Assembly (NCBI GenBank): GCA_964594155.1
Contig: CAZQLH010000001.1
Coordinates: forward strand, 74,132-138,131
DNA from: an uncultured Candidatus Saccharibacteria bacterium
GTDB taxonomy: Bacteria; Patescibacteriota; Minisyncoccia; Portnoybacterales; UBA2143
Direction: 5' to 3'
DNA: 64,000 nucleotides
Positions within the stretch are counted from its first letter, which is position 1. Each line of letters begins with the position of its first letter. A program made the translations under genes and the position numbers. The notes beneath the pieces were generated by a model. It did no database searches. It saw only the letters and a list, made by a program, of their open reading frames with translations, and was not told where the DNA came from. This document shows, in pieces, positions 5,618 to 44,147 of this stretch.

Positions 5618-5650
5618 TAAAAAAAAACAGGCGATTTCTCGCGCTGTTTT
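5618..5650 (-). terminator. Rho-independent terminator downstream of tRNA-Lys, bidirectional in form
   Basis: GC-rich hairpin acaggcga-tttc-tcgcgctgt at 5627-5647. On the plus strand it is preceded by an A9 run and followed by TTTT, so on the minus strand the hairpin is followed by T9. Confidence 0.6.
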
Positions 5651-5657
5651 ATATTAG

Positions 5658-6408: not shown

Positions 6409-7493
6409 TATGTTTTCCCTAGTTCTTTAATAATTTTCTTTTGTTGACGAGATGGTTTCTTAGGAACATTAACTTGAATTTTAACAATTAAACTTCCTTG
6501 TCCTTGTCCATACAATCTTGACATGCCTTTATTCTTTAATTCTATCATTTCTCCGGGTTGAATACCAGCTGGAATTTTTAATTTAACTTTTCCATCTAAT
6601 ATTGGTATTTCTATTTTATCGCCTAAAACTGCTTGGGCAAAGTTAATATTCAGATTAAAAACCAAATCATCTCCTTGTCGTTGAAATTGCTTATGAGGCT
6701 TAACATGAACATTGATAAATAAATCGCCGGCTGGTCCGCCATAAGGCCCTGCTTCTCCCTGATTAGACATTTTCAATGTCTGTCCATTATTAATGCCAGC
6801 TGGAATAGTAATTTTAATCTTGCTGATTTTTTTTATTCTTCCCTGACCGCGACATTCAGGACAAGTTTTCTCTGGCATCTCTCCGCGTCCATGACATTTA
6901 GAACATTGTCTTTGCTGAATAAACATTCCGAACAAACTACTGCTTCTTATTTGCTCATAACCGCTTCCTTGGCAATTAGAGCACTTTTTTAAAGATTTAC
7001 CGCCTTTTCCATCGCATTTTTCACAAACATTCATTTTTTTTAATTCTATCTCTTTTTTAACTCCATGAAAAGCGTCTTCTAAATCTATTTCTGTATCTAT
7101 AATAATATCTTGGCCATATTGAACAGTTTGTCTGGGTCTGGCCCCAAAGCCGAACATTTGTTCAAAAATCCGTCCAAAACCAAGATCTTCAAAAATATCC
7201 TGACCGCCAAAAGCATCGTAAAAAGAACCAAAATCCTGTTGGGAAAATCCCTGGCCAAAAGGCGCTCCTTCAAATACTTGACCATATTGATCATATTGGT
7301 CTTTCTTGTTTTTATCAGAAAGAACGCTATAGGCCTTACTAATTTCTTTAAATTTTTTTTCGTATTCTTTTTTCTTACTTTCAGGAGCCCGATCAGGATG
7401 GTATTTTAAAGCTAATTTTCGATAAGCTTTTTTGATTTCACTCTCTGAAGCGCTGCGAGGAACCCCTAAAACTTCATAATAATCTTTTGCCAT
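6408..7493 (-). CDS. dnaJ: Chaperone DnaJ
   Basis: J-domain with HPD (KYHPDRAP), a G/F-rich linker, four CxxCxGxG zinc-finger repeats and a C-terminal peptide-binding domain. Confidence 0.9.
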
Positions 7494-12997: not shown

Positions 12998-14215
12998 ATG
13001 AAAAAAGTCAATAATAAAAATAGAAAAAAAACTTTTTACTTTTTACTTAGCTTGGTCTTATTAAGGCCATCTTTGGATATTTTTAGCCAAATAGAATTTC
13101 AAATTCATCCTAATTTGCCTATTTTTAATATTAATATTATTATTGGCGGATTAGTTTTTTTAATTTGTCTGCTATTTTTTAGTAAAAATATAAAAAATAT
13201 TTATTCTACGCCGCTTTTTTATCCTATTTTACTATTTTTAGGACTATGTTTTGCCAGTATTTTTTATTCTATTGATCCATTTAACAGTATTAGAGAATTT
13301 ATTAGAATTATTACGATTTTTCTTCTTTATTTTCTATCTTATCAATTGATTGAGAGTAAAAAAGATTTCTGGCTATTAATAAAAATTATTCTAATAAGCT
13401 ATATTTTGCCTGGTATTTTTGCCTTAATTCAGCTTATTTTTGGCTTAGGCCTGCCTGATGACTTTGGCGGATTTAAAAGAATTTACGGCACTTTTGCCCA
13501 TCCTAATCCTTTTGCTTTTTACACTTTTTTCATCTTAGGATTAGCCCTTGCTTTAACTCTGTCAAAAACACGCATTAATGTTACGTCTTGGTTTTTAATT
13601 ATTATTTTAACCTTTCTTCTTTTCTCTACTCATACTAGAAGCGCAATTGCTTGTTTTTTTATCTTTATTATTATTTTCGGGGTTTTTAAATACAGGCAAA
13701 TTCTTTTGGCTGGAATCATGATTTTCTTTTTTGCTTATTTCTTTTCTGAAATCTTTCAACAGCGCCTTTGGGAATTAATTGCTTTAGATCCATACAGTTC
13801 AGTTGTTTGGCGATTTCGCCTTTGGAAAGATATAATTCCAATTTCTATGTGGCAGCCATGGCTTGGCTATGGAACTGGAACTTTTACAAACTTAGTTGAA
13901 TTTTACAGGGGTTTTAAATGGGGCAGCTTAGAAGCGCATAATGATTATTTAAAAATATTTGTTGAAAACGGCATTTTGGGCTTAATCGCCTATTTTTGGC
14001 TTATTGCCAGCTTATTATTTTATTTGCTTAAAATATTCAAAAAAACTATTAATCAAGATAAAATTCTAACTTTGGGGATTTTAGTTATTTGTATAAGCTT
14101 ATTTGCCGCTAGTTTTTTTGACAATATTCTACGCGAAACAGCCCTTCAGTGGAATCTTTGGATTCTTTTAGCTGGCTGGTTAAAAATCCAATTAAAAAAC
14201 CCTGCATCTTTTTAG
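12998..14215 (+). CDS. O-antigen ligase / polymerase-like membrane protein (Wzy_C-like)
   Basis: 405 aa with about 10 TM helices and a central extracytoplasmic loop carrying the conserved His/Arg-rich region (FAHPN, HTRS, H-N-DYL) typical of the WaaL/Wzy superfamily. Confidence 0.6.
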   Translation: MKKVNNKNRKKTFYFLLSLVLLRPSLDIFSQIEFQIHPNLPIFNINIIIGGLVFLICLLFFSKNIKNIYSTPLFYPILLFLGLCFASIFYSIDPFNSIREFIRIITIFLLYFLSYQLIESKKDFWLLIKIILISYILPGIFALIQLIFGLGLPDDFGGFKRIYGTFAHPNPFAFYTFFILGLALALTLSKTRINVTSWFLIIILTFLLFSTHTRSAIACFFIFIIIFGVFKYRQILLAGIMIFFFAYFFSEIFQQRLWELIALDPYSSVVWRFRLWKDIIPISMWQPWLGYGTGTFTNLVEFYRGFKWGSLEAHNDYLKIFVENGILGLIAYFWLIASLLFYLLKIFKKTINQDKILTLGILVICISLFAASFFDNILRETALQWNLWILLAGWLKIQLKNPASF

Positions 14216-14237
14216 ATACAGGGTCTTTTTGTTTTTT
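14200..14237 (+). terminator. Rho-independent terminator overlapping the stop of the Wzy-like gene, bidirectional in form
   Basis: Hairpin ccctgcatct-tttt-agatacaggg (one mismatch) is followed by tctttttgtttttt. An A-run precedes it, so it can also terminate minus-strand transcription. Confidence 0.65.
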
Positions 14238-14264
14238 AATCCCTCCTAACTATCATTATTATCT

Positions 14265-14391
14265 CGGGCGGCAATGCCTATCCCTTGAAAATGACAAAGT
14301 CCTTTAGATGATAATATAATAATCTATTCTCTTCCTAAATAGCAATGCTTGTTTAGGAAAGAATTTGCGAATAAATAGCAATGCTTGTTTA
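14265..14391 (-). promoter_or_regulatory. Orphan copy of the leader/operator motif set shared with 18009-18050 (GGCAATGCC palindrome plus two AATAGCAATGCTTGTTTA direct repeats)
   Basis: cgggcggcaatgcctatccc (14265-14284) is about 90% identical to cggacggcaatgcctatcca at 18009-18028. A 19-bp direct repeat aaatagcaatgcttgttta occurs at 14337-14355 and 14373-14391, and tagcaatgctt recurs at 18036-18045. Confidence 0.5.
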
Positions 14392-14414
14392 TTCTGAAAG
14401 TTTGTTGAGAGATT

Positions 14415-15029
14415 TTATTCAGCCAATTCTGGATGCCGGCCTTGTTTTAATTTTCCCAGGCCAAGCGATTTCAGAGGAATCGTGGGCTTATTTGGATACA
14501 TTACCAAGCCAATGGCTAATGTGTCCATAACAACTGCCCCAAGATCCATTTCATAAATAATCCATTTATTTTTTGGATCAAGAAGGAAAAATCCAACATC
14601 ATTGTCTGCTGATTCAGCATATCCCCAAATATGCTCCACAACCGGCTCTTTAACGCCTTTGGCATAATTGGGCAAACTGAATTCAGCTCTGCCTTTTTTT
14701 ACAACAATGTCCGCAAAATAAAAATTTCTTTTGCCAGCCGCATGAAGGATGCCAGAAGCCAGTTTAATTCTGACAGCTGATTTTACCTTTTTTTTCATTG
14801 ACGCCATTGCCGGATTAAGAATAGTAACATGAACTCTGTCGCCTATATCCTTAACCTTAATTGAAAACTTGGCCATTGGCGCCATATCAGCTGTTGGCGC
14901 AGTAAGCTTGCTGTCTTTCATTAAAGCGCGAATCTCATCAGCGGTTTCTGGATGCTTCATCTGTTCTGCGCTGACAAAAACGGGAAATAACCAGAAAATC
15001 GCCAACACTATGAATAATGTTCTTTTCAC
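14415..15029 (-). CDS. Secreted hypothetical protein (signal peptide)
   Basis: N-terminal MKRTLFIVLAIFWLFPVFVSAEQ (signal peptide with AxA-like cleavage region). The rest is hydrophilic with no known motif. The gene reads GC-richer than its surroundings. Confidence 0.45.
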   Translation of the reverse strand: MKRTLFIVLAIFWLFPVFVSAEQMKHPETADEIRALMKDSKLTAPTADMAPMAKFSIKVKDIGDRVHVTILNPAMASMKKKVKSAVRIKLASGILHAAGKRNFYFADIVVKKGRAEFSLPNYAKGVKEPVVEHIWGYAESADNDVGFFLLDPKNKWIIYEMDLGAVVMDTLAIGLVMYPNKPTIPLKSLGLGKLKQGRHPELAE

Positions 15030-15035
15030 TCTACA

Positions 15036-16616
15036 TCACCTCCTTTTTTTTAATTTCTGTTTTAAAATATTCCAGATTTCCTGTTCTGCTTTTTCTGTGT
15101 CAATAACTGAAATCGGGATACTTCTTTTACTCTTGCTAAAAATTTGATGATAAAGATTATACAAGCTAATCTCGCCGTAAAGACCAGTAGAACTTGTATT
15201 TCCTTTGCTACTCTTCCAATCTGTATAACCAGCGCCTATTTTAAAAGAACCATTAAAACATGACAGGCCGATTTTGCCTCCGGTTCCCAATTTGCTGTTT
15301 TCAGCATAATAGGTTCCGCGGGTCTCGCTCCAAACCTGTAAATCTTTGCCAATGATATCAAAGACATCAGCATAAACCGCCAGATTATAAGCGCCTTTAT
15401 TGTCTGGTTCTCCATTTAACGGCTGTTGTCCGTTCCATTGATCAGTCCAATAATCGTTTTTCTGATGATTTATGTCTATTTCCACTTCACCAGAAACACG
15501 AATCTTGGAAAACCATTTTTCATTAGCCCGTCCATTGTATTCAGCAGAAGAATAGAAATTCATAATATCTGTTTTCTGCTCCACGCTGTACTGGCCAAAC
15601 TGATTATTCAGATAACCCTGATCCTTGCGCTGGCCTAAGCCAGCCCTGCCAAGAACTTCCCAATTTCTTTTCTGGTCGCGGAAACGCCCGGCTATAGCCC
15701 AGATATCCGCATCGCCTTTGTAATGAAACGGATTGCTTTCTCCGGTTTCGCCTGACCAATTTCTGGCCGTGTAATTCAACCCAAATGCCCATTCATTTCC
15801 GTCATAATCATCAAAAACAACCGGGTAAAGAGTTGACGACTGCCACCAGCCACTTACATTATTGCCGTCTTTATAGCTTTCGCTATATCCGCCCCAAGTT
15901 GAATCCCAGTCCCATTTATGTTTTTTAACTTTTGCTGGAATTTCCAACCTATCTGCTAAAAAGAATGGAAATGGCGGCGGTATTGGGGGTATTGGCGGAG
16001 GCAAAAGTAAAGCTATTTTTTTCTTTTGCTTGATTGCCCAATTTCCGCAATAAATCGGATACCAAAGCTCGCGGCCGTTATCAAGCTGATAAACCCGGGC
16101 TGCTTGTTTTTTGCCTTTCCAATCAACAACAACATTTCTCCAGATATGAAATTTCTTTCCGAAAAGCATTTTCACAAACTCATCTTTTTCCTTGATAATA
16201 TCCCAGCGAAATCCTTTTTGGGATTTTTCCAAGGCATCCATATGAATGGAAATGACTTTCTCGGTTTGCTCTATGGTTAATCCAAGAGTTCTTAATCCCT
16301 GAATGTCCCGAAGCAGTTGCTTTTCAGAATCAGCTGGAAATCTTTTAAAAGGATTTCTATTGAAATCTTTCCAAATTGATTTAGCATTAATATCCAGAAG
16401 ATCGCTTAAATGAATCTTCTGATTAGGAAAAATAGAATTCCTTTTTCTTGCCTCTGTCCTGACTTTTGCCCAAGGAATATGAAAAACCTTGATAGCGATT
16501 TTATAAATACTATCGCCTTTCTTTACCGTGTAAACCCTGTCATCTGATTGAAAAGCAGAGGCAGAATTTACAATGGCAAAGAATACAATTATTGTTAAGA
16601 GTATTCTTTTTATCAT
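15036..16616 (-). CDS. Secreted LysM-domain protein with Pro-rich linker and Gly/aromatic-rich C-terminal domain
   Basis: Signal peptide MIKRILLTIIVFFAIVNSASA. LysM-like segment YTVKKGDSIYKIAIKVF...IHLSDLLDI. PPPIPPIPPPFPFF linker. The C-terminal 300 aa are rich in W/Y/G/N with alternating-pattern stretches (beta-rich, barrel- or wall-binding-like). Confidence 0.5.
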   Translation of the reverse strand: MIKRILLTIIVFFAIVNSASAFQSDDRVYTVKKGDSIYKIAIKVFHIPWAKVRTEARKRNSIFPNQKIHLSDLLDINAKSIWKDFNRNPFKRFPADSEKQLLRDIQGLRTLGLTIEQTEKVISIHMDALEKSQKGFRWDIIKEKDEFVKMLFGKKFHIWRNVVVDWKGKKQAARVYQLDNGRELWYPIYCGNWAIKQKKKIALLLPPPIPPIPPPFPFFLADRLEIPAKVKKHKWDWDSTWGGYSESYKDGNNVSGWWQSSTLYPVVFDDYDGNEWAFGLNYTARNWSGETGESNPFHYKGDADIWAIAGRFRDQKRNWEVLGRAGLGQRKDQGYLNNQFGQYSVEQKTDIMNFYSSAEYNGRANEKWFSKIRVSGEVEIDINHQKNDYWTDQWNGQQPLNGEPDNKGAYNLAVYADVFDIIGKDLQVWSETRGTYYAENSKLGTGGKIGLSCFNGSFKIGAGYTDWKSSKGNTSSTGLYGEISLYNLYHQIFSKSKRSIPISVIDTEKAEQEIWNILKQKLKKRR

Positions 16617-16632: not shown

Positions 16633-17469
16633 TTAATCTTGCTTCATGCGCAATTGCAGCCATTCTTTATAATCGCGTTCGTACTGTTCTTTTTTTTGTT
16701 GATAATCCTGCATTTCTTTATTCCACTTATTAAATCCGAGCTTTTCAAGAGTCAAGCCAAGCTGAAATCTATCCACTAAGGCTGTGTCGTAATACGGCAG
16801 GTATAAATCAGCTTTTTGGACAATCGCTTGAACAAGCGACCAAATCCTAACGCCGAAAATGCCGAATAAAGAAGAAAAATCAGTTGCCCCGGCCAAAATT
16901 ATATCATCTGTGGTAATTTTGGCTACCTGGGACATAACCCGGTCAAAAAGGCCTGGAATTTTCTGATTGTCTAAGCCTTTTCCGATATTAATTAAAATAG
17001 TTTGTATTTGCTTATCCTGTTCAGAATCTAATTTAATATTTTCCCAAATCTCAATCCCGGTTTCGCCCAATAACTTAATCTTAGACCAATCTAATTTTGG
17101 AACTAAATAGCCATTTTTGGAAAAGATATTTTTTCCATCAACAGTATAAAAGTTCCTGCCGCTTCGTGAAGAAATAATGCATTTTTGATTAGAAAGATCT
17201 GCTTCAGCTATTATTAATAACCGATTTTTAACCCTGACGCCAGAAAATGATTTCTTGTTATCTAATGGTTGTTCCAAAAATAAATTATGGCGTACCCCTG
17301 ATCCTTCTGATAAAAAAAGAACAGGATGTATTTCCAACCAATAGACATTATAAGATAGAAAAGCTTGTTCTTCTATCTTATTTATATCTTTTTCCGGCAT
17401 TATGAATTGCCGATTAGCGCAGGCGCTCAAAGAAAGCGCCAGCATTAACATTATTGTTAATCTTTTCAC
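16633..17469 (-). CDS. Putative lipoprotein, hypothetical
   Basis: The N-terminus MKRLTIMLMLALSLSACANRQ has an LSAC lipobox-like motif. No further family motif. The stop overlaps the start of the upstream gene by 4 nt, which fits co-transcription. Confidence 0.45.
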   Translation of the reverse strand: MKRLTIMLMLALSLSACANRQFIMPEKDINKIEEQAFLSYNVYWLEIHPVLFLSEGSGVRHNLFLEQPLDNKKSFSGVRVKNRLLIIAEADLSNQKCIISSRSGRNFYTVDGKNIFSKNGYLVPKLDWSKIKLLGETGIEIWENIKLDSEQDKQIQTILINIGKGLDNQKIPGLFDRVMSQVAKITTDDIILAGATDFSSLFGIFGVRIWSLVQAIVQKADLYLPYYDTALVDRFQLGLTLEKLGFNKWNKEMQDYQQKKEQYERDYKEWLQLRMKQD

Positions 17470-17993
17470 ACTGTCACCTCCTTGAATGATTTTAGCTCTT
17501 CGTTTTGTTTATAGTGCAGTTTAAGATGTTTTGCCACCCTATGAGGGTTTTTATTCCTAAATTTACAAATAGGACAGCAAATCATTTCTTTTTCCATAAA
17601 GCATTTAACTTCAAATACCCTCTTATTGGCAAAACCCAATCTAATAATTTTCTGGCTTTTCTGAGTTGTTTTTATTCTTTTTCTACGTATATAGAAAAAA
17701 ACAACAATCAAGAAAAAAATAGACACAATTCCTGACATAATTTCTAAAAAAGAATTATTTGAAATAATATCTTTTTTCTTTTCAAAAACCGGAATCTTAA
17801 GGCCCTCGCCAGCAAAAATAGTGTCTTTTATAGTGCGATTATTTATTTTTGCCAGTTCATCCATTGGAATTTTATACTTTACAGCAATAATTCCCCATGT
17901 TTCTTTTGGCTGGACTACATGAATCTTGTATTCCTGCGCAAAGCCCAAAGAATAACAAAACAACGCCACAAAACAAATCAATATCTTTTTCAT
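17466..17993 (-). CDS. Single-pass membrane protein with extracytoplasmic LysM domain and cytoplasmic C2H2-type zinc finger
   Basis: The start is taken at MKKILICF (ATG 17993-17991) because GAGAGG lies 8 nt upstream; the ORF track begins 12 codons earlier. Signal peptide, then LysM YKIHVVQPKETWGIIAVKYKIPMDELAKINNRTIKDTIFAGEGLKIP, then TM helix IMSGIVSIFFLIVVFFYI + RRKR, then CPICKFRNKNPHRVAKHLKLH (C-x2-C-x12-H-x3-H). Confidence 0.5.
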   Translation of the reverse strand: MKKILICFVALFCYSLGFAQEYKIHVVQPKETWGIIAVKYKIPMDELAKINNRTIKDTIFAGEGLKIPVFEKKKDIISNNSFLEIMSGIVSIFFLIVVFFYIRRKRIKTTQKSQKIIRLGFANKRVFEVKCFMEKEMICCPICKFRNKNPHRVAKHLKLHYKQNEELKSFKEVTV

Positions 17994-18008
17994 TTCAAAC
18001 CTCTCTTT

Positions 18009-18050
18009 CGGACGGCAATGCCTATCCATTATAGTAGCAATGCTTTCTAT
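18009..18050 (-). promoter_or_regulatory. Leader/operator motifs upstream of the LysM cassette (GGCAATGCC palindrome, TAGCAATGCTT site, TATAAT -10)
   Basis: On the minus strand: AAGCATTGCTACTATAATGGATAGGCATTGCCGTCCGAAAGAGAGGTTTGAAATG. TATAAT lies at 18033-18028 and the RBS GAGAGG follows. The motifs are shared with 14265-14391. Confidence 0.5.
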
Positions 18051-18087
18051 TTAATTTTCAAGGAACTCCTCCTTAAAAACCTCCTCT

Positions 18088-18726
18088 TTAGATATAAAAA
18101 TCATTTCTATCCAAAAAGGAAGTTTCTTTTTTTAAAACCCAGATTATGCCAATTAAAAATCCTGCTAAAGCGCCTAAAATTGAACCTACCCACAGCTGAA
18201 TAACAACTGGTTTTTGACTGACTAACGGCTCATTTAAAATCTTTAATTCAACATTTTGTCCGCCGCCATGATAAAACCAATGTTCATCTGCTAATGTATT
18301 GATAATTGCCCGGCTGATTTGTTCAGCTTTTTCTTTTTGAGGATAAAAAACATCTATCTCTATTATTCCTAAATCGCGGATTATTGTTGTTTTAACTGTT
18401 TTTTGCCATTGTTTCCGTCTTTTTTTGATTTGAGGTGAAAAGCCATCTGCTTCCACTTGATAAGACGATTGCGTAACTTTTTCAAAAAAACTATCAGAAT
18501 AAATTCCTTGTTTTAAAATACGGGAAAGATATTGAGCTGATTTAGAAATACTATAAATATCCTGGCCAGATACTTGTTTTTGAACAACTAATATCTTAGA
18601 ACTGGATTTATATTGCGGTGTTTGAATAACAGCCAAATCAAAAACTAAAACAGCCCCTAAAACAGTCAGCCAAAAGATTAGCCATTTCTTTTTATAAAGC
18701 GTTTTGATTGTTTGTTTAAAAGTCAT
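18088..18726 (-). CDS. Polysaccharide chain-length determinant (Wzz/PCP-like, short form)
   Basis: 212 aa. An N-terminal TM segment is followed by VIQTPQYKSSSKILV (the PxY.S...I Wzz signature region), and a C-terminal second TM GSILGALAGFLIGIIW follows. This N- and C-terminal TM topology is typical of PCP proteins. Confidence 0.5.
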   Translation of the reverse strand: MTFKQTIKTLYKKKWLIFWLTVLGAVLVFDLAVIQTPQYKSSSKILVVQKQVSGQDIYSISKSAQYLSRILKQGIYSDSFFEKVTQSSYQVEADGFSPQIKKRRKQWQKTVKTTIIRDLGIIEIDVFYPQKEKAEQISRAIINTLADEHWFYHGGGQNVELKILNEPLVSQKPVVIQLWVGSILGALAGFLIGIIWVLKKETSFLDRNDFYI

Positions 18727-18751
18727 AAAAAAATTGCCTTATCACAGGCAA
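18727..18751 (-). terminator. Hairpin plus T-run immediately upstream of the Wzz-like start codon; likely terminator of the dnaK transcript
   Basis: Minus strand reads ttgcctgtgataaggcaa then TTTTTTT then ATG of the 18088-18726 gene. No Shine-Dalgarno sequence lies between. Confidence 0.5.
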
Positions 18752-18802
18752 TAATATTATAACCAAATTCTATCTTGTTTGTCAAATTTTGTCAAGCGAA
18801 TT

Positions 18803-18867: not shown

Positions 18868-20715
18868 TTATTCCTTCTTTTCCTCCTCTTTAACTTCCTC
18901 ATATTCCCCCTTAACAGTATCTTTTCCCTTTATCTCTGGTTCTGACTGTTCGGCTTTCTCCTCCTCAACCTTTTTATATAATTGAGCGCCAATTTTTTGA
19001 ATTACTTGAGATAATTCATCAATTGCCTTTTTAAGCTCTTCAATCTCATTGCTGTCTTTTAATTTCTTTAATGCTTCTAATTTTTCATCAACTTCTTTTT
19101 TATCTTCTGCTTTTACTTTATCTCCAGATTCTTTAAGCGCTTTTTCAGTAGAAAAAATCAATGTATCAGCCTGATTGCGAACTTCAATTAATTCCTTTTT
19201 CTTTCTATCCTCAACTGAATGAGTTTCTGCTTCTTTTTTCATTTTTTCAATTTCTTCTTTAGAAAGAGCTGAAGAATCAGTAATAGTAATCTGCTGTTCC
19301 TTATTAGTTGCTTTATCTTTTGCCTTAACATTCAAAATACCATTAGCGTCAATATCAAAAGAAACTTCAATTTGAGGCGCGCCTCGCGGAGCTGGCGGAA
19401 TCCCGTCTAAAATAAATCTGCCTAAAGTCCGATTGTCGGATGCTATTGGCCTTTCTCCTTGTAAAATATGAATATCTACTGCTGGCTGATTATCAGCTGC
19501 TGTGGAAAAAATCTGGATTTTGGAAGCTGGAATAGTTGTATTGCGTTCAATCAAAGGCGTCATTACTTGCCCTAATGTTTCAATTCCTAAAGTCAAAGGA
19601 GTAACATCCAACAAAAGCACGTCTTTTGTCTCGCCAGTTAAAATACCTCCTTGAATACCTGCGCCCATAGCAACGCATTCCATTGGATCAACTCCTCTTT
19701 CTATTTTCTTTCCAGCATAATCTTCAACAAATTTATGAACAATCGGCATCCTGGTTGGTCCGCCAACCAAGATAATTTTAGTAATATCATTTGGAGTTAA
19801 TTTAGCGTCTTTTAAGGCCTGTTCCATTGGCTGTTGGCACTTATTAATAATCGGCTTAACTAATTCTTCTAATTTAGCCCTGGTAATTTTCATAGTTAAA
19901 TGCTTTGGACCAGCATCATCAGCGCTAATAAAAGGAAGATTAATATCTGTTTCTAAAGTTGAAGAAAGTTCAATCTTAGCTTTTTCCGCTCCTTCTTTAA
20001 GCCGCTGTAAAGAGGTCTTATCTTGCTTTAAGTCAATCTTATTTTCTTTTTTAAACTCTTCAGCTAAATAATCAATCAAAACTTCATCCATATCAGTCCC
20101 GCCTAATTGAGTATCTCCAGAAGTTGATTTTACTTCAAAAACTCCTTCGCCAAAATCCATAATTGTTACATCAAGCGTCCCTCCGCCAAGATCAAAAACA
20201 AGAATCTTTTCTTCTTGGTCTGCCTTGTCAATTCCATAAGCCAAAGAAGCAGCAGTTGGTTCATTAATAATTCTAACTACTTCTAATCCTGCTATCGCGC
20301 CTGCGTCTTTAGTTGCCTGTCTTTGGGCATCGTTAAAATAGGCTGGGGCGGTAATAACTGCTTTTTGTATTGGCTCGCCTAAAAATGCTTCTGCGTCTTT
20401 TTTAATTTTTTGCAAAATAAAAGCAGAAAGCTGTTGAGGAGTATATTCCTTGCCATTCAAAGCATACTTCTCTTTGGTCCCCATCTTTCTTTTAAACGCA
20501 GATGCAGTATTCTCTGGATTGGTAACTGCTTGGCGGCGAGCTGGCTCGCCAACTAAAAGATTGTTGTCTTTGTCAAAAGACACATATGATGGAAAGGCCT
20601 TGCCTCCGCCAACTACTGTTCCTTCAGCTGAAGGAATAATTGTTGGCTTGCCTGCTTCAACAACTGAAGCAGCTGAATTAGATGTTCCTAAGTCAATGCC
20701 AATTATTTTACTCAT
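18868..20715 (-). CDS. dnaK: Chaperone DnaK (Hsp70)
   Basis: 615 aa. Motifs [18 protein letters not shown] and [11 protein letters not shown] are present, with a C-terminal [10 protein letters not shown] tail. Confidence 0.95.
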
Positions 20716-33554: not shown

Positions 33555-33565
33555 CTCCTTTCATG

Positions 33566-43652: not shown

Positions 43653-43727
43653 TGGCAGGCGCGGAGGGACTCGAACCCCCAGGATCGGCTTTGGAGGCCG
43701 ACCGTTTACCAATTAACGGACGCGCCC
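43653..43727 (-). tRNA. tRNA-Trp (anticodon CCA), 3' CCA encoded
   Basis: The reverse complement GGGCGCGTCCGTTAATTGGTAAACGGTCGGCCTCCAAAGCCGATCCTGGGGGTTCGAGTCCCTCCGCGCCTGCCA has anticodon loop CTCCAAA and is similar to E. coli tRNA-Trp. Confidence 0.85.
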
Positions 43728-43734
43728 ATATATT

Positions 43735-43893
43735 TTACTTTTTCATCTCCTTATGTAATGTATGCTTTCTACACCACTTGCAAAACTTCTTCAGTTCTAA
43801 TTTATCCTGAATTGTTTTCTTGTTTTTGCGAGAATAATAATTTATTCTTTTGCACTCGCTGCATTGAAATTTAATTAAATTATCTTGTGACAT
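43735..43893 (-). CDS. rpmG: 50S ribosomal protein L33 (absent from the supplied ORF track)
   Basis: Hand translation gives MSQDNLIKFQCSECKRINYYSRKNKKTIQDKLELKKFCKWCRKHTLHKEMKK (52 aa). It carries the L33 pattern C-x2-C...NY...KN...LEL.K(F/Y)C.xCRKHTLHKE. Confidence 0.75.
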   Translation of the reverse strand: MSQDNLIKFQCSECKRINYYSRKNKKTIQDKLELKKFCKWCRKHTLHKEMKK

Positions 43894-43903
43894 AGTTTTT
43901 CAG

Positions 43904-43976
43904 AGCCGATGCTCGGATTCGAACCGAGGACCTACTCCTTACCATGGAGGCGCTCTACCAACTGAGCTACATCGGC
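43904..43976 (-). tRNA. tRNA-Thr (anticodon GGT)
   Basis: The reverse complement GCCGATGTAGCTCAGTTGGTAGAGCGCCTCCATGGTAAGGAGTAGGTCCTCGGTTCGAATCCGAGCATCGGCT aligns with E. coli tRNA-Thr(GGU). The anticodon loop is ATGGTAA. Confidence 0.8.
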
Positions 43977-43989
43977 TTTTTTTATTATG

Positions 43990-44071
43990 TGGGCGGTGCA
44001 GGACTCGAACCTGCGAAGTCCGAAGACGCGAGATTTACAGTCTCGAGCAATTGCCGCTATGCGAACCGCCC
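43990..44071 (-). tRNA. tRNA-Tyr (anticodon GTA), type II with long variable arm
   Basis: The reverse complement GGGCGGTTCGCATAGCGGCAATTGCTCGAGACTGTAAATCTCGCGTCTTCGGACTTCGCAGGTTCGAGTCCTGCACCGCCCA has anticodon loop CTGTAAA and a long extra arm. Confidence 0.8.
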
Positions 44072-44072
44072 A

Positions 44073-44147
44073 TGGAGCCAGCGAAGGGAATCGAACCCCC
44101 AACCTACTGTTTACAAAACAGTTGCTCTGCCATTGAGCTACGCTGGC
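44073..44147 (-). tRNA. tRNA-Thr (anticodon TGT), 3' CCA encoded
   Basis: The reverse complement GCCAGCGTAGCTCAATGGCAGAGCAACTGTTTTGTAAACAGTAGGTTGGGGGTTCGATTCCCTTCGCTGGCTCCA has anticodon loop TTTGTAA. Confidence 0.85.

Follow-up and report, generated by a model that had tools for sequence, protein, structure and literature searches.

Genes and hairpins of the operon

The window analyzed here is a 64-kb stretch of contig CAZQLH010000001.1 from an uncultured bacterium of the Patescibacteria (candidate phyla radiation [CPR]), and we focused on a motif built around the word GCAATGC that recurs in two intergenic regions of a five-gene cell-envelope operon. The window has a G+C content of 33%, and most of its genes lie on the minus strand, which is the operon-sense strand. 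On this strand, the operon runs from a Wzz-like gene (18088 to 18726) through a gene for a 175-amino-acid protein with a LysM domain, a transmembrane (TM) helix, and a zinc finger (17466 to 17993), a lipoprotein-like gene (16633 to 17469), and a gene for a 526-amino-acid LysM protein (15036 to 16616) to a last gene for a 204-amino-acid protein (14415 to 15029), with dnaK (18868 to 20715, minus strand) upstream of it. A Wzy_C gene (12998 to 14215, plus strand) is convergent to the operon, and a bidirectional intrinsic terminator at 14194 to 14229, whose stem is kept in relatives, is common to both and ends the operon transcript. Eleven other lineages with the same gene neighborhood were retrieved (contigs are given L numbers below), and the co-occurrence comparison spans about 14 lineages. 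The same species is present, with identical sequence, in many metagenomes; its contigs L060 to L069 are identical in both intergenic regions and carry no microdiversity information.

The first intergenic region (94 nt, 17994 to 18087) precedes the zinc-finger gene, and the second (199 nt, 14216 to 14414) follows the last operon gene. An earlier note on this DNA had reported short palindromic strings at 18.0 and 14.3 kb, the latter between convergent genes and next to a bidirectional terminator, and both the strings and this setting were found as described. The string GGCAATGCC occurs at 14270 to 14278 and at 18014 to 18022, with an identity that reaches tCGGrCGGCAATGCCTATCCmTT, and TAGCAATGCTT occurs at 18035 to 18045. 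The direct repeat TAAATAGCAATGCTTGTTTA is present in two exact copies, at 14336 to 14355 and 14372 to 14391, although its length is 20 bp and not 19 bp as first given.

The 18.0-kb elements had been placed between a TATAAT box and the ribosome-binding site of the zinc-finger gene, which holds for the GGCAATGCC element but not for the TAGCAATGCTT element, located upstream of the TATAAT and overlapping it. As a −10 box, this TATAAT (18028 to 18033, minus strand) is not convincing: it is absent from the seven other lineages that carry the zinc finger, half of it serves as the 3′ strand of a hairpin stem, and it has no properly spaced −35 box, the nearest TTGAAA being 22 nt away. A perfect σ70 consensus (TTGACA-18-TATAAT, 12 of 12 positions) lies at 18756 to 18785 on the minus strand, between dnaK and the Wzz-like gene. 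Given that the inner TATAAT is not conserved and that this consensus stands upstream of Wzz, the hairpins described below are most simply intercistronic elements of a Wzz-to-terminator transcript. Their location inside the operon, upstream of its terminator, makes it likely that both regions are transcribed. After the σ70 consensus, a hairpin with a U-run (18733 to 18752, minus strand) ends at the Wzz start codon and could be a leader or attenuator.

Folding placed every GCAATGC of the five copies at the apex of a longer hairpin, the stems of which differ between copies. Judged from sequence and predicted folds, the cores form the tips of a structured RNA hairpin that recurs in the operon's sense transcript. 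Read from its 5′ side, the hairpin unit has a lower stem of 3 to 13 bp of any sequence, an A-rich 5′ internal loop of the form (N)A, a top stem of 3 bp (RGC/GCY), a U-rich loop with 3 to 5 nt, and an unpaired A or G on the 3′ side. All copies in the window lie on the minus strand, and the bit scores given with them come from the covariance model described below.

The 5′ cluster contains two of these hairpins in tandem, B′ at 18031 to 18050 (AUAG AA AGC AUU GCU A CUAU; fold; R1 30.6 bits, E = 4e-7) and A′ at 18010 to 18027 (GGA UA GGC AUU GCC G UCC; 17.5 bits, E = 0.013). Hairpin A′ ends 16 nt before the AUG of the zinc-finger gene (17991 to 17993) and about 4 nt before its Shine-Dalgarno (SD) region, which reads AGAGAGGU at 17999 to 18006 of the minus strand. 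Across all lineages with the zinc finger, the 3′ end of A′ lies 13 to 30 nt before the AUG, and the block GAAAGAGAGGUUUGAAAUG near the SD is kept in L070 and L071. Further upstream, starting 7 nt past the Wzz stop codon, we observed a separate 12-bp hairpin, GGUUUUUAAGGA-GGAGU-UCCUUGAAAAUU (18053 to 18081, minus strand), that includes SD-like AGGAGG strings and is also kept in relatives, even in those that lack the zinc finger or the RGC-NUU-GCY hairpins; it shows a G:U-to-G:C change in L074 and, having no U-run, is not a classical terminator. A mini-open reading frame (ORF) after Wzz (MKIK*) was rejected, as it is not conserved as an ORF.

The 3′ cluster lies 3.7 kb from the 5′ cluster in the 3′ untranslated region (UTR) of the operon and has three to five hairpins depending on the lineage. 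In the window, these are C at 14369 to 14394 (GAAUAAA CA AGC AUU GCU A UUUAUUC; 30.0 bits), B at 14326 to 14364 (AUUCUUUCCUAAA CA AGC AUU GCU A UUUAGGA(A)GAGAAU; 28.6 bits), the lower stem of which has 13 bp with one bulge, and A at 14266 to 14284 (GGG AUA GGC AUU GCC G CCC; 29.3 bits). A variant hairpin D at 14286 to 14308 (RNAalifold columns 115 to 137), with GAC/GUC as its top stem, pairs perfectly in L070 and L071 (UCUAAA G GAC UUU GUC A UUUAGA) and has two broken pairs in the window, making it the weakest part of the cluster. None of A, B, C, A′, and B′ is followed by a U-run, so that we rejected the idea that they are intrinsic terminators; the true terminator at 14194 to 14229 is a separate structure.

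When the 3′ region was folded for the window, L070, and L071 together using RNAalifold, these hairpins became part of a structured 3′-UTR domain of about 180 nt (14238 to 14414, minus strand). Its closing helix pairs AAUCUCUC (14407 to 14414), right after the stop codon, with the SD-like GGAGGGAUU (14238 to 14246), and it encloses hairpins C and B as well as a long helix (14310 to 14324 with 14248 to 14263) carrying D and A, after which comes the terminator. The earlier note had suggested a short minus-strand RNA at 14.2 to 14.4 kb, and the conserved, structured sense-strand domain predicted here, which ends at the terminator, is close to that proposal. In distant lineages, the overall layout of the 3′ region differs and the hairpin unit is kept, with five copies in L078 and three in L085.

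An SD-like AGGAGG(G/A) a few nucleotides before the operon terminator or in its loop is a feature of every relative, with or without the hairpin array (window, 14238 to 14247, minus strand; L074, 5265 to 5275; L077, ~7262 to 7270; L084, ~6816 to 6824; L086, ~6852 to 6860). No start codon follows it, and by analogy it might be a ribosome-binding stabilizer of the STAB-SD type. Three other candidates were discarded. A plus-strand σ70 promoter (ATGACA-18-TATAAT, 14291 to 14320) degenerates to TAAGTA in L070; a σ54 reading of TGGATAGGCATTGCC fails on inspection, as the GG-to-GC spacing differs between the copies (11 versus 12); and a small ORF in the 14.3-kb intergenic region loses its ATG (14381, plus strand) to AAG in L071, with a 2-nt indel between the window and L070/L071.

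To assess how far the motif departs from chance, we counted the word itself. GCAATGC occurs 11 times in the window, against an expectation of 10.0 ± 3.4, showing that the bare 7-mer is not enriched. However, 5 of the 11 copies fall, in a single orientation, within the 293 nt of the two intergenic regions (binomial estimate, ~1e-9), while the remaining six are scattered in coding sequence without any hairpin context. The real signal is therefore one of clustering and context, not of word count, and a test of frequency against base composition would have wrongly dismissed the motif. The earlier claim that the two loci share a functional, non-random motif set stands.

For the structural search, MAFFT misaligned the copies with loops of 4 to 5 nt when applied to all 25 hairpins, and for this reason the covariance model was built from the triloop copies only. 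The triloop-trained model nevertheless recovered copies outside its training set, namely, the longer loops in L078 and the triloops in L085. In the 64 kb, it returned only the five sites, at 17.5 to 30.6 bits (E = 4e-7 to 0.013), the next-best match (14.3 bits, E = 0.16) being an ordinary terminator at 5622 to 5652, and in ∼130 kb of DNA from the loci of relatives, it gave no matches outside the two positions. A scan for generic hairpins with a GC..GC core was too permissive (65 matches versus 16 in shuffled sequences) and was replaced by this model. In a search of the window with Rfam 15 at the gathering threshold, only tRNAs passed and no family matched the hairpins; at E values up to 10, only weak terminator-driven matches appeared at 14.2 kb (Thr_leader, 26.6 bits versus a threshold of 55). 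The tRNA genes of the window comprise a cluster of four (Trp-CCA, Thr-GGT, Tyr-GTA, and Thr-TGT; 43653 to 44147, minus strand) and single genes for tRNA-Lys at 5657 and tRNA-Glu at 33565. A full-text literature search returned nothing relevant to the motif.

These searches also bear on the idea that the hairpins are remnants of a mobile or repetitive palindromic element that landed twice near the operon, such as a repetitive extragenic palindrome or bacterial interspersed mosaic element (REP/BIME), a miniature inverted-repeat transposable element, an IS200/IS605 end, or an integron attC site. Imperfect palindromes with a conserved core and variable stems do resemble the logic of REP and attC elements, and a 23-nt stretch is common to the two A copies, apart from 2 mismatches. 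We nonetheless regard this origin as highly improbable. There are five copies at one operon, with no further ones found in the 64 kb or in the flanks of the relatives, and even lineages with protein identities of only 38 to 50% have hairpins at the same two places in the operon. No transposase, REP-associated tyrosine transposase, or integrase was found nearby; for attC in particular, the hairpins lack the RYYYAAC and GTTRRRY core sites, and the window holds no integrase. A scan of 185,579 species genomes with the A core, CGGNCGGCAATGCCTATCC, gave only 59 single matches attributable to chance, nearly all in high-GC genomes and unrelated contexts, and the sole CPR match (L014) lies inside dense coding-like sequence, again pointing to chance.

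Covariation, strand, and conservation of the hairpins

Altogether, 33 hairpin instances from eight lineages were counted, with 24 distinct lower stems among them. The pairing test used the 16 triloop instances in a fixed register, where 83.6% of the cells were paired, versus 64.7% in shuffles (none of 500 reached the observed value) and 22 to 51% when the 3′ partner was slid. Three pairs were formed in all 16 triloops, with different bases in different copies: 4:21 (GC in 7, AU in 4, CG in 4, and UA in 1), 5:20 (AU in 9 and GC in 7), and 9:17 (AU in 8, GC in 5, GU in 2, and UA in 1). Six of the eight pairs vary on both sides among these copies, which is the compensatory substitution by which structured RNA is recognized. 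Substitutions between orthologous hairpins point the same way. For B′, the lower stem AUAG/CUAU is replaced by GCAG/CUGC in L070 and L071 and by CAG/CUG in L080 and L082. For B, L071 has CUUAAG/CUUAAG in place of CCUAAA/UUUAGG, with two compensatory pairs, and the top stem of A, GGC/GCC in the window, is UGC/GCA in L070, again by compensation. Hairpin C is conserved in L070 and has a UUU loop and an AA internal loop in L071. Hairpin A′ is present upstream of the zinc-finger gene in all eight lineages, with stems as different as GGAU/AUCC, GAU/AUC, AGAU/AUCU, GGU/ACC, and UUGG/CCAA.

Three observations tie the element to one strand. In the top stems GGC/GCU (five instances) and GGU/GCC (one instance), the third pair is G:U, so that pairing is possible on the sense strand only; the RNAalifold consensus of the 3′ region reaches −59.7 kcal/mol for the sense strand versus −45.2 for the antisense strand, which also has more broken pairs; and all covariance-model matches in all loci are on the operon-sense strand. 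Together, they suggest that the element acts as the sense strand. RNA structure in the operon transcript is the best reading of these sequence patterns, single-stranded DNA of the sense strand being much less likely.

The same data speak to the original interpretation of the strings as palindromic DNA operators for a dimeric regulator. In its most developed form, GCANTGC palindromes in double-stranded DNA would be bound by a dimeric factor, maybe the membrane-tethered finger protein in a ToxR- or CadC-like role, and the operon would be looped through the two clusters. In its favor, the cores in the window are palindromes, there are sites on either flank of the operon, DNA is the classical ligand of C2H2 fingers, and the co-occurrence with the zinc-finger gene presented below would be equally compatible with this arrangement. 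We consider it improbable all the same, since the half-site spacing varies from 3 through 4 to 5 nt, 6 of the 33 top stems are asymmetric as DNA (GGC..GCT or GGT..GCC) yet valid as RNA stems with a G:U pair, and the orientation is strictly bound to the transcript strand, being the same in all 33 copies. Moreover, a double-stranded site gives no role to flanking stems that vary and covary: arbitrary flanking inverted repeats are useless to a reader of double-stranded DNA and useful to a folded single strand. A conserved promoter overlap is also absent, the TATAAT being specific to the window, and the 3′ cluster stands downstream of the last gene.

Further evidence for function in the folded strand's regions comes from their conservation. 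The closest relative, L070, shares 81% nucleotide identity with the window overall. Excluding the terminator, the 3′ intergenic region is 91% identical, versus 75% and 85% for the two genes flanking it, 64 to 78% for third codon positions, 44 to 55% for other intergenic regions, and only 67% for the terminator. At aligned positions, the 5′ region shows 95% identity. Purifying selection is therefore acting on both regions, and the 14.3-kb copy, which is better conserved than the genes on either side of it, is not the orphan that the earlier note had considered.

The zinc-finger protein and its co-occurrence with the hairpins

The candidate binding partner of the hairpins is the 175-amino-acid product of the second operon gene (annotated elsewhere as 187 amino acids from an upstream start), which has a signal peptide, a LysM domain (Pfam, E = 2e-7), one TM helix, a cytoplasmic basic stretch, and a single C2H2-like finger, CPICKFRNKNPHRVAKHLKLH. 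The finger has the classical C2H2 spacing C-x2-C-x12-H-x3-H in the window and in L076, L078, L080, L082, and L085, and residues C131, C140, C143, and H156 are conserved. Among relatives, the ectodomain may be of the LysM type, OmpA-like, or absent, and the cytoplasmic FxVxC...CPxC...HLK module is constant. The AlphaFold2 model predicts a β-sheet and a helix over residues 114 to 173 (predicted local distance difference test [pLDDT], 71 to 85), and the protein has sub-threshold matches to C2H2 fingers in the PDB. The family is rare, with 7 representatives among 1.84 billion. In some relatives, the operon genes are fused (L078, 5983 to 7491; L085, 2787 to 4610; L074, 997 to 2760), the fused pairs being the zinc-finger protein with the lipoprotein-like 278-amino-acid protein and the 526- with the 204-amino-acid protein, which suggests that the products work together at the envelope.

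Comparison of the lineages shows that the hairpins follow this finger. The 5′ hairpins are found in all eight lineages with the FxVxC...CPxC...HLK finger (window, L070, L071, L076, L078, L080, L082, and L085), and the 3′ hairpins are found in all five of those whose contig includes the operon end. Neither cluster was found in the lineages without the zinc-finger gene (L073 and L075), in those with only a TM stub (L077 and L083/84), or in those with a different, C2HC variant (L074 and L086), and these hairpin-less lineages retain the other operon genes and the terminator. The earlier proposal that the motif is tied to the LysM-C2H2 gene is thus borne out, both clusters being present only where the operon encodes that finger. 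The stubs at the position of the zinc-finger gene (L077, 3914 to 4045, 43 amino acids; L084, 3306 to 3575, 89 amino acids) look like natural deletions of the finger domain with which both hairpin clusters were lost. In a neighbor-joining tree of the 526-amino-acid protein, the finger-bearing L076 is sister to the stub-only L077 and L083, while L075 branches elsewhere. As finger-less lineages are interspersed among finger-bearing ones, the finger and both clusters were lost together at least twice. Because three genes and 3.7 kb separate the 3′ cluster from the finger gene, its co-loss is not a trivial result of adjacency.

The variant lineages offer an additional observation. In L074 (997 to 2760) and L086 (2715 to 3431), a C2HC-type cytoplasmic finger (…RHV[IT]KRC[KT]KSP[HY]Y) on an OmpA-like or LysM membrane protein occupies the same operon position without the hairpin motif. 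The upstream regions of these two genes share CAGGUGA(A/G)GA, which might be a different cognate element.

From this co-occurrence, we propose that the hairpins are a cis-acting RNA motif bound by the operon-encoded zinc-finger domain for post-transcriptional control, a proposal on which we are evenly divided between belief and doubt. The other reading that accommodates the folds is that they are structured mRNA unrelated to the zinc finger, acting as RNase processing sites, as blocks to 3′ exonucleases or stabilizers, as a site for a protein encoded elsewhere, or as a trans-acting small RNA (sRNA) derived from the 3′ UTR. All of the structural and strand evidence would fit an RNA independent of the finger equally well, and a closed 3′ domain that ends in a terminator is typical of 3′-UTR-derived sRNAs, in keeping with the sRNA idea of the earlier note. 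For generic stabilizers, on the other hand, there would be no need to conserve the apical sequence and keep the A-rich internal loop fixed, and one would not expect them to vanish at both operon ends with each loss of the finger while the other four genes and the terminator are kept; and for a trans-acting RNA or protein, no further target site was found in the 64 kb. A role unconnected with the finger is accordingly possible but, in our view, rather doubtful.

Several points weigh against binding of the hairpins by this finger. As to the protein, the second, last His of the finger is Glu in L070 and L071; the five Pfam C2H2 models that match do so below their curated cutoffs (best, 21.8 bits versus 27); the AlphaFold2 model is mediocre as a whole (mean pLDDT, 57); and a Foldseek search of the model against the PDB returned nothing at E ≤ 0.001. 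In addition, a single C2H2 finger usually binds weakly. As to the co-occurrence, the 5′ hairpins adjoin the zinc-finger gene, which makes their association partly trivial and leaves the 3′ cluster as the only independent test; the ∼14 lineages share ancestry and are not phylogenetically independent; and the partner could also be encoded elsewhere in the genome. As to the RNA, the hairpins themselves do not sequester the SD in the predicted fold, the direction of regulation proposed below is a guess, and the covariance model rests on a register of our own choosing, which leans the counts towards structure. For this last point, the controls with a slid partner, the substitutions between orthologs, and the copies that the model recovered without training on them argue that register bias is not the source of the signal.

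Possible roles and related systems

If the zinc-finger domain is the partner of the hairpins, the cytoplasmic C2H2-like domain of the membrane protein would bind them as RNA. Binding at A′ and B′, by the SD and within the ribosome footprint, may repress or tune translation of the protein's own cistron and would thereby amount to autoregulation. The multivalent array in the 3′ UTR may titrate the protein in cis, or it may couple the protein to the entire mRNA's stability or location at the membrane; as the products of the operon are all exported, the array could serve as a membrane tether. The extracytoplasmic LysM or OmpA-like domain could tie such regulation to the status of the cell wall. 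Taken to its full extent, the model would make the membrane-tethered C2H2 finger a sequence- and structure-specific RNA-binding domain, with an ectodomain that senses peptidoglycan; the hairpins, both those by the finger gene's ribosome-binding site and those of the 3′ UTR, would then serve to control the translation, stability, or membrane localization of an mRNA for exported envelope proteins. We put this complete version forward only tentatively, and think it less probable than the binding itself.

Patescibacteria have tiny genomes with few recognizable regulators, and their control of gene expression is, to our knowledge, almost entirely uncharacterized. If the full model is true, it would be the first zinc-finger/RNA-hairpin regulatory pair and the first transmembrane post-transcriptional signaling device described in bacteria, and an example of envelope-to-mRNA signaling across the membrane in reduced genomes of the Patescibacteria. 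Confirmation of the partner would add C2H2 zinc fingers to the repertoire of bacterial RNA-binding domains. The motif and its candidate partner, a 24-nt RNA and a 70-residue domain, make up a compact testable system. Even with the wrong partner, the motif would be a candidate for a new, lineage-restricted RNA family for curation of the Rfam type, and it illustrates that “operator-like palindromes” of AT-rich genomes can be RNA stems.

Known systems provide working analogies, although the motif belongs to none of those RNA-based systems that we compared it with. The layout recalls that of the iron-responsive element (IRE) and its iron regulatory protein (IRP), where one copy stands near the translation start in ferritin mRNA and a five-copy array stands in the 3′ UTR of the transferrin receptor mRNA. 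In both, the hairpin is small, its apical loop is conserved, and a nucleotide between lower and upper stem is left unpaired, and both combine sites by a translation start with a multicopy 3′-UTR array. The analogy is one of layout only: the IRE/IRP system is eukaryotic, with a CAGUGN loop and an aconitase-like protein, and a sequence relationship is absent; here, all of the hairpins would be on one polycistronic bacterial mRNA.

Closer to the 5′ cluster are the coat-protein operators of MS2 and PP7, the leaders of ribosomal-protein operons, and the operator of threonyl-tRNA synthetase, in which a hairpin with a bulged or unpaired A likewise lies beside the SD of the regulator's own or a neighboring cistron and the binder, here a presumed one, is encoded in cis. 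Unlike in those operators, there are two copies of the motif near the start codon and more in the 3′ UTR, and Rfam has no match for it; where those operators bind coat proteins, ribosomal proteins, or a synthetase, the presumed binder here is a C2H2-like finger anchored in the membrane. The CsrA system, with CsrB and RsmZ, shares the use of one hairpin motif both at a target SD and in a multivalent array elsewhere, and there, too, the copy number of the array varies; here, it does so by lineage (3, 5, and 3). It differs in that the present loops lack GGA, the array lies in cis, within the operon's own 3′ UTR, CsrA is not involved, and a decoy role is putative.

On the protein side, ToxR, CadC, and TcpP are similarly single-pass membrane proteins that join extracytoplasmic sensing to a cytoplasmic nucleic-acid-binding domain and whose genes lie beside their target sites. 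Those proteins use an N-terminal winged helix on double-stranded promoter DNA, whereas the protein described here has a C-terminal cytoplasmic zinc finger and an RNA-like target. Ros and MucR resemble it in being bacterial proteins with a single zinc finger and flanking basic residues; unlike it, they are soluble and bind AT-rich DNA, and the Pfam matches of the present finger were all to C2H2 models of the eukaryotic type, below threshold, with none to Ros/MucR seen.

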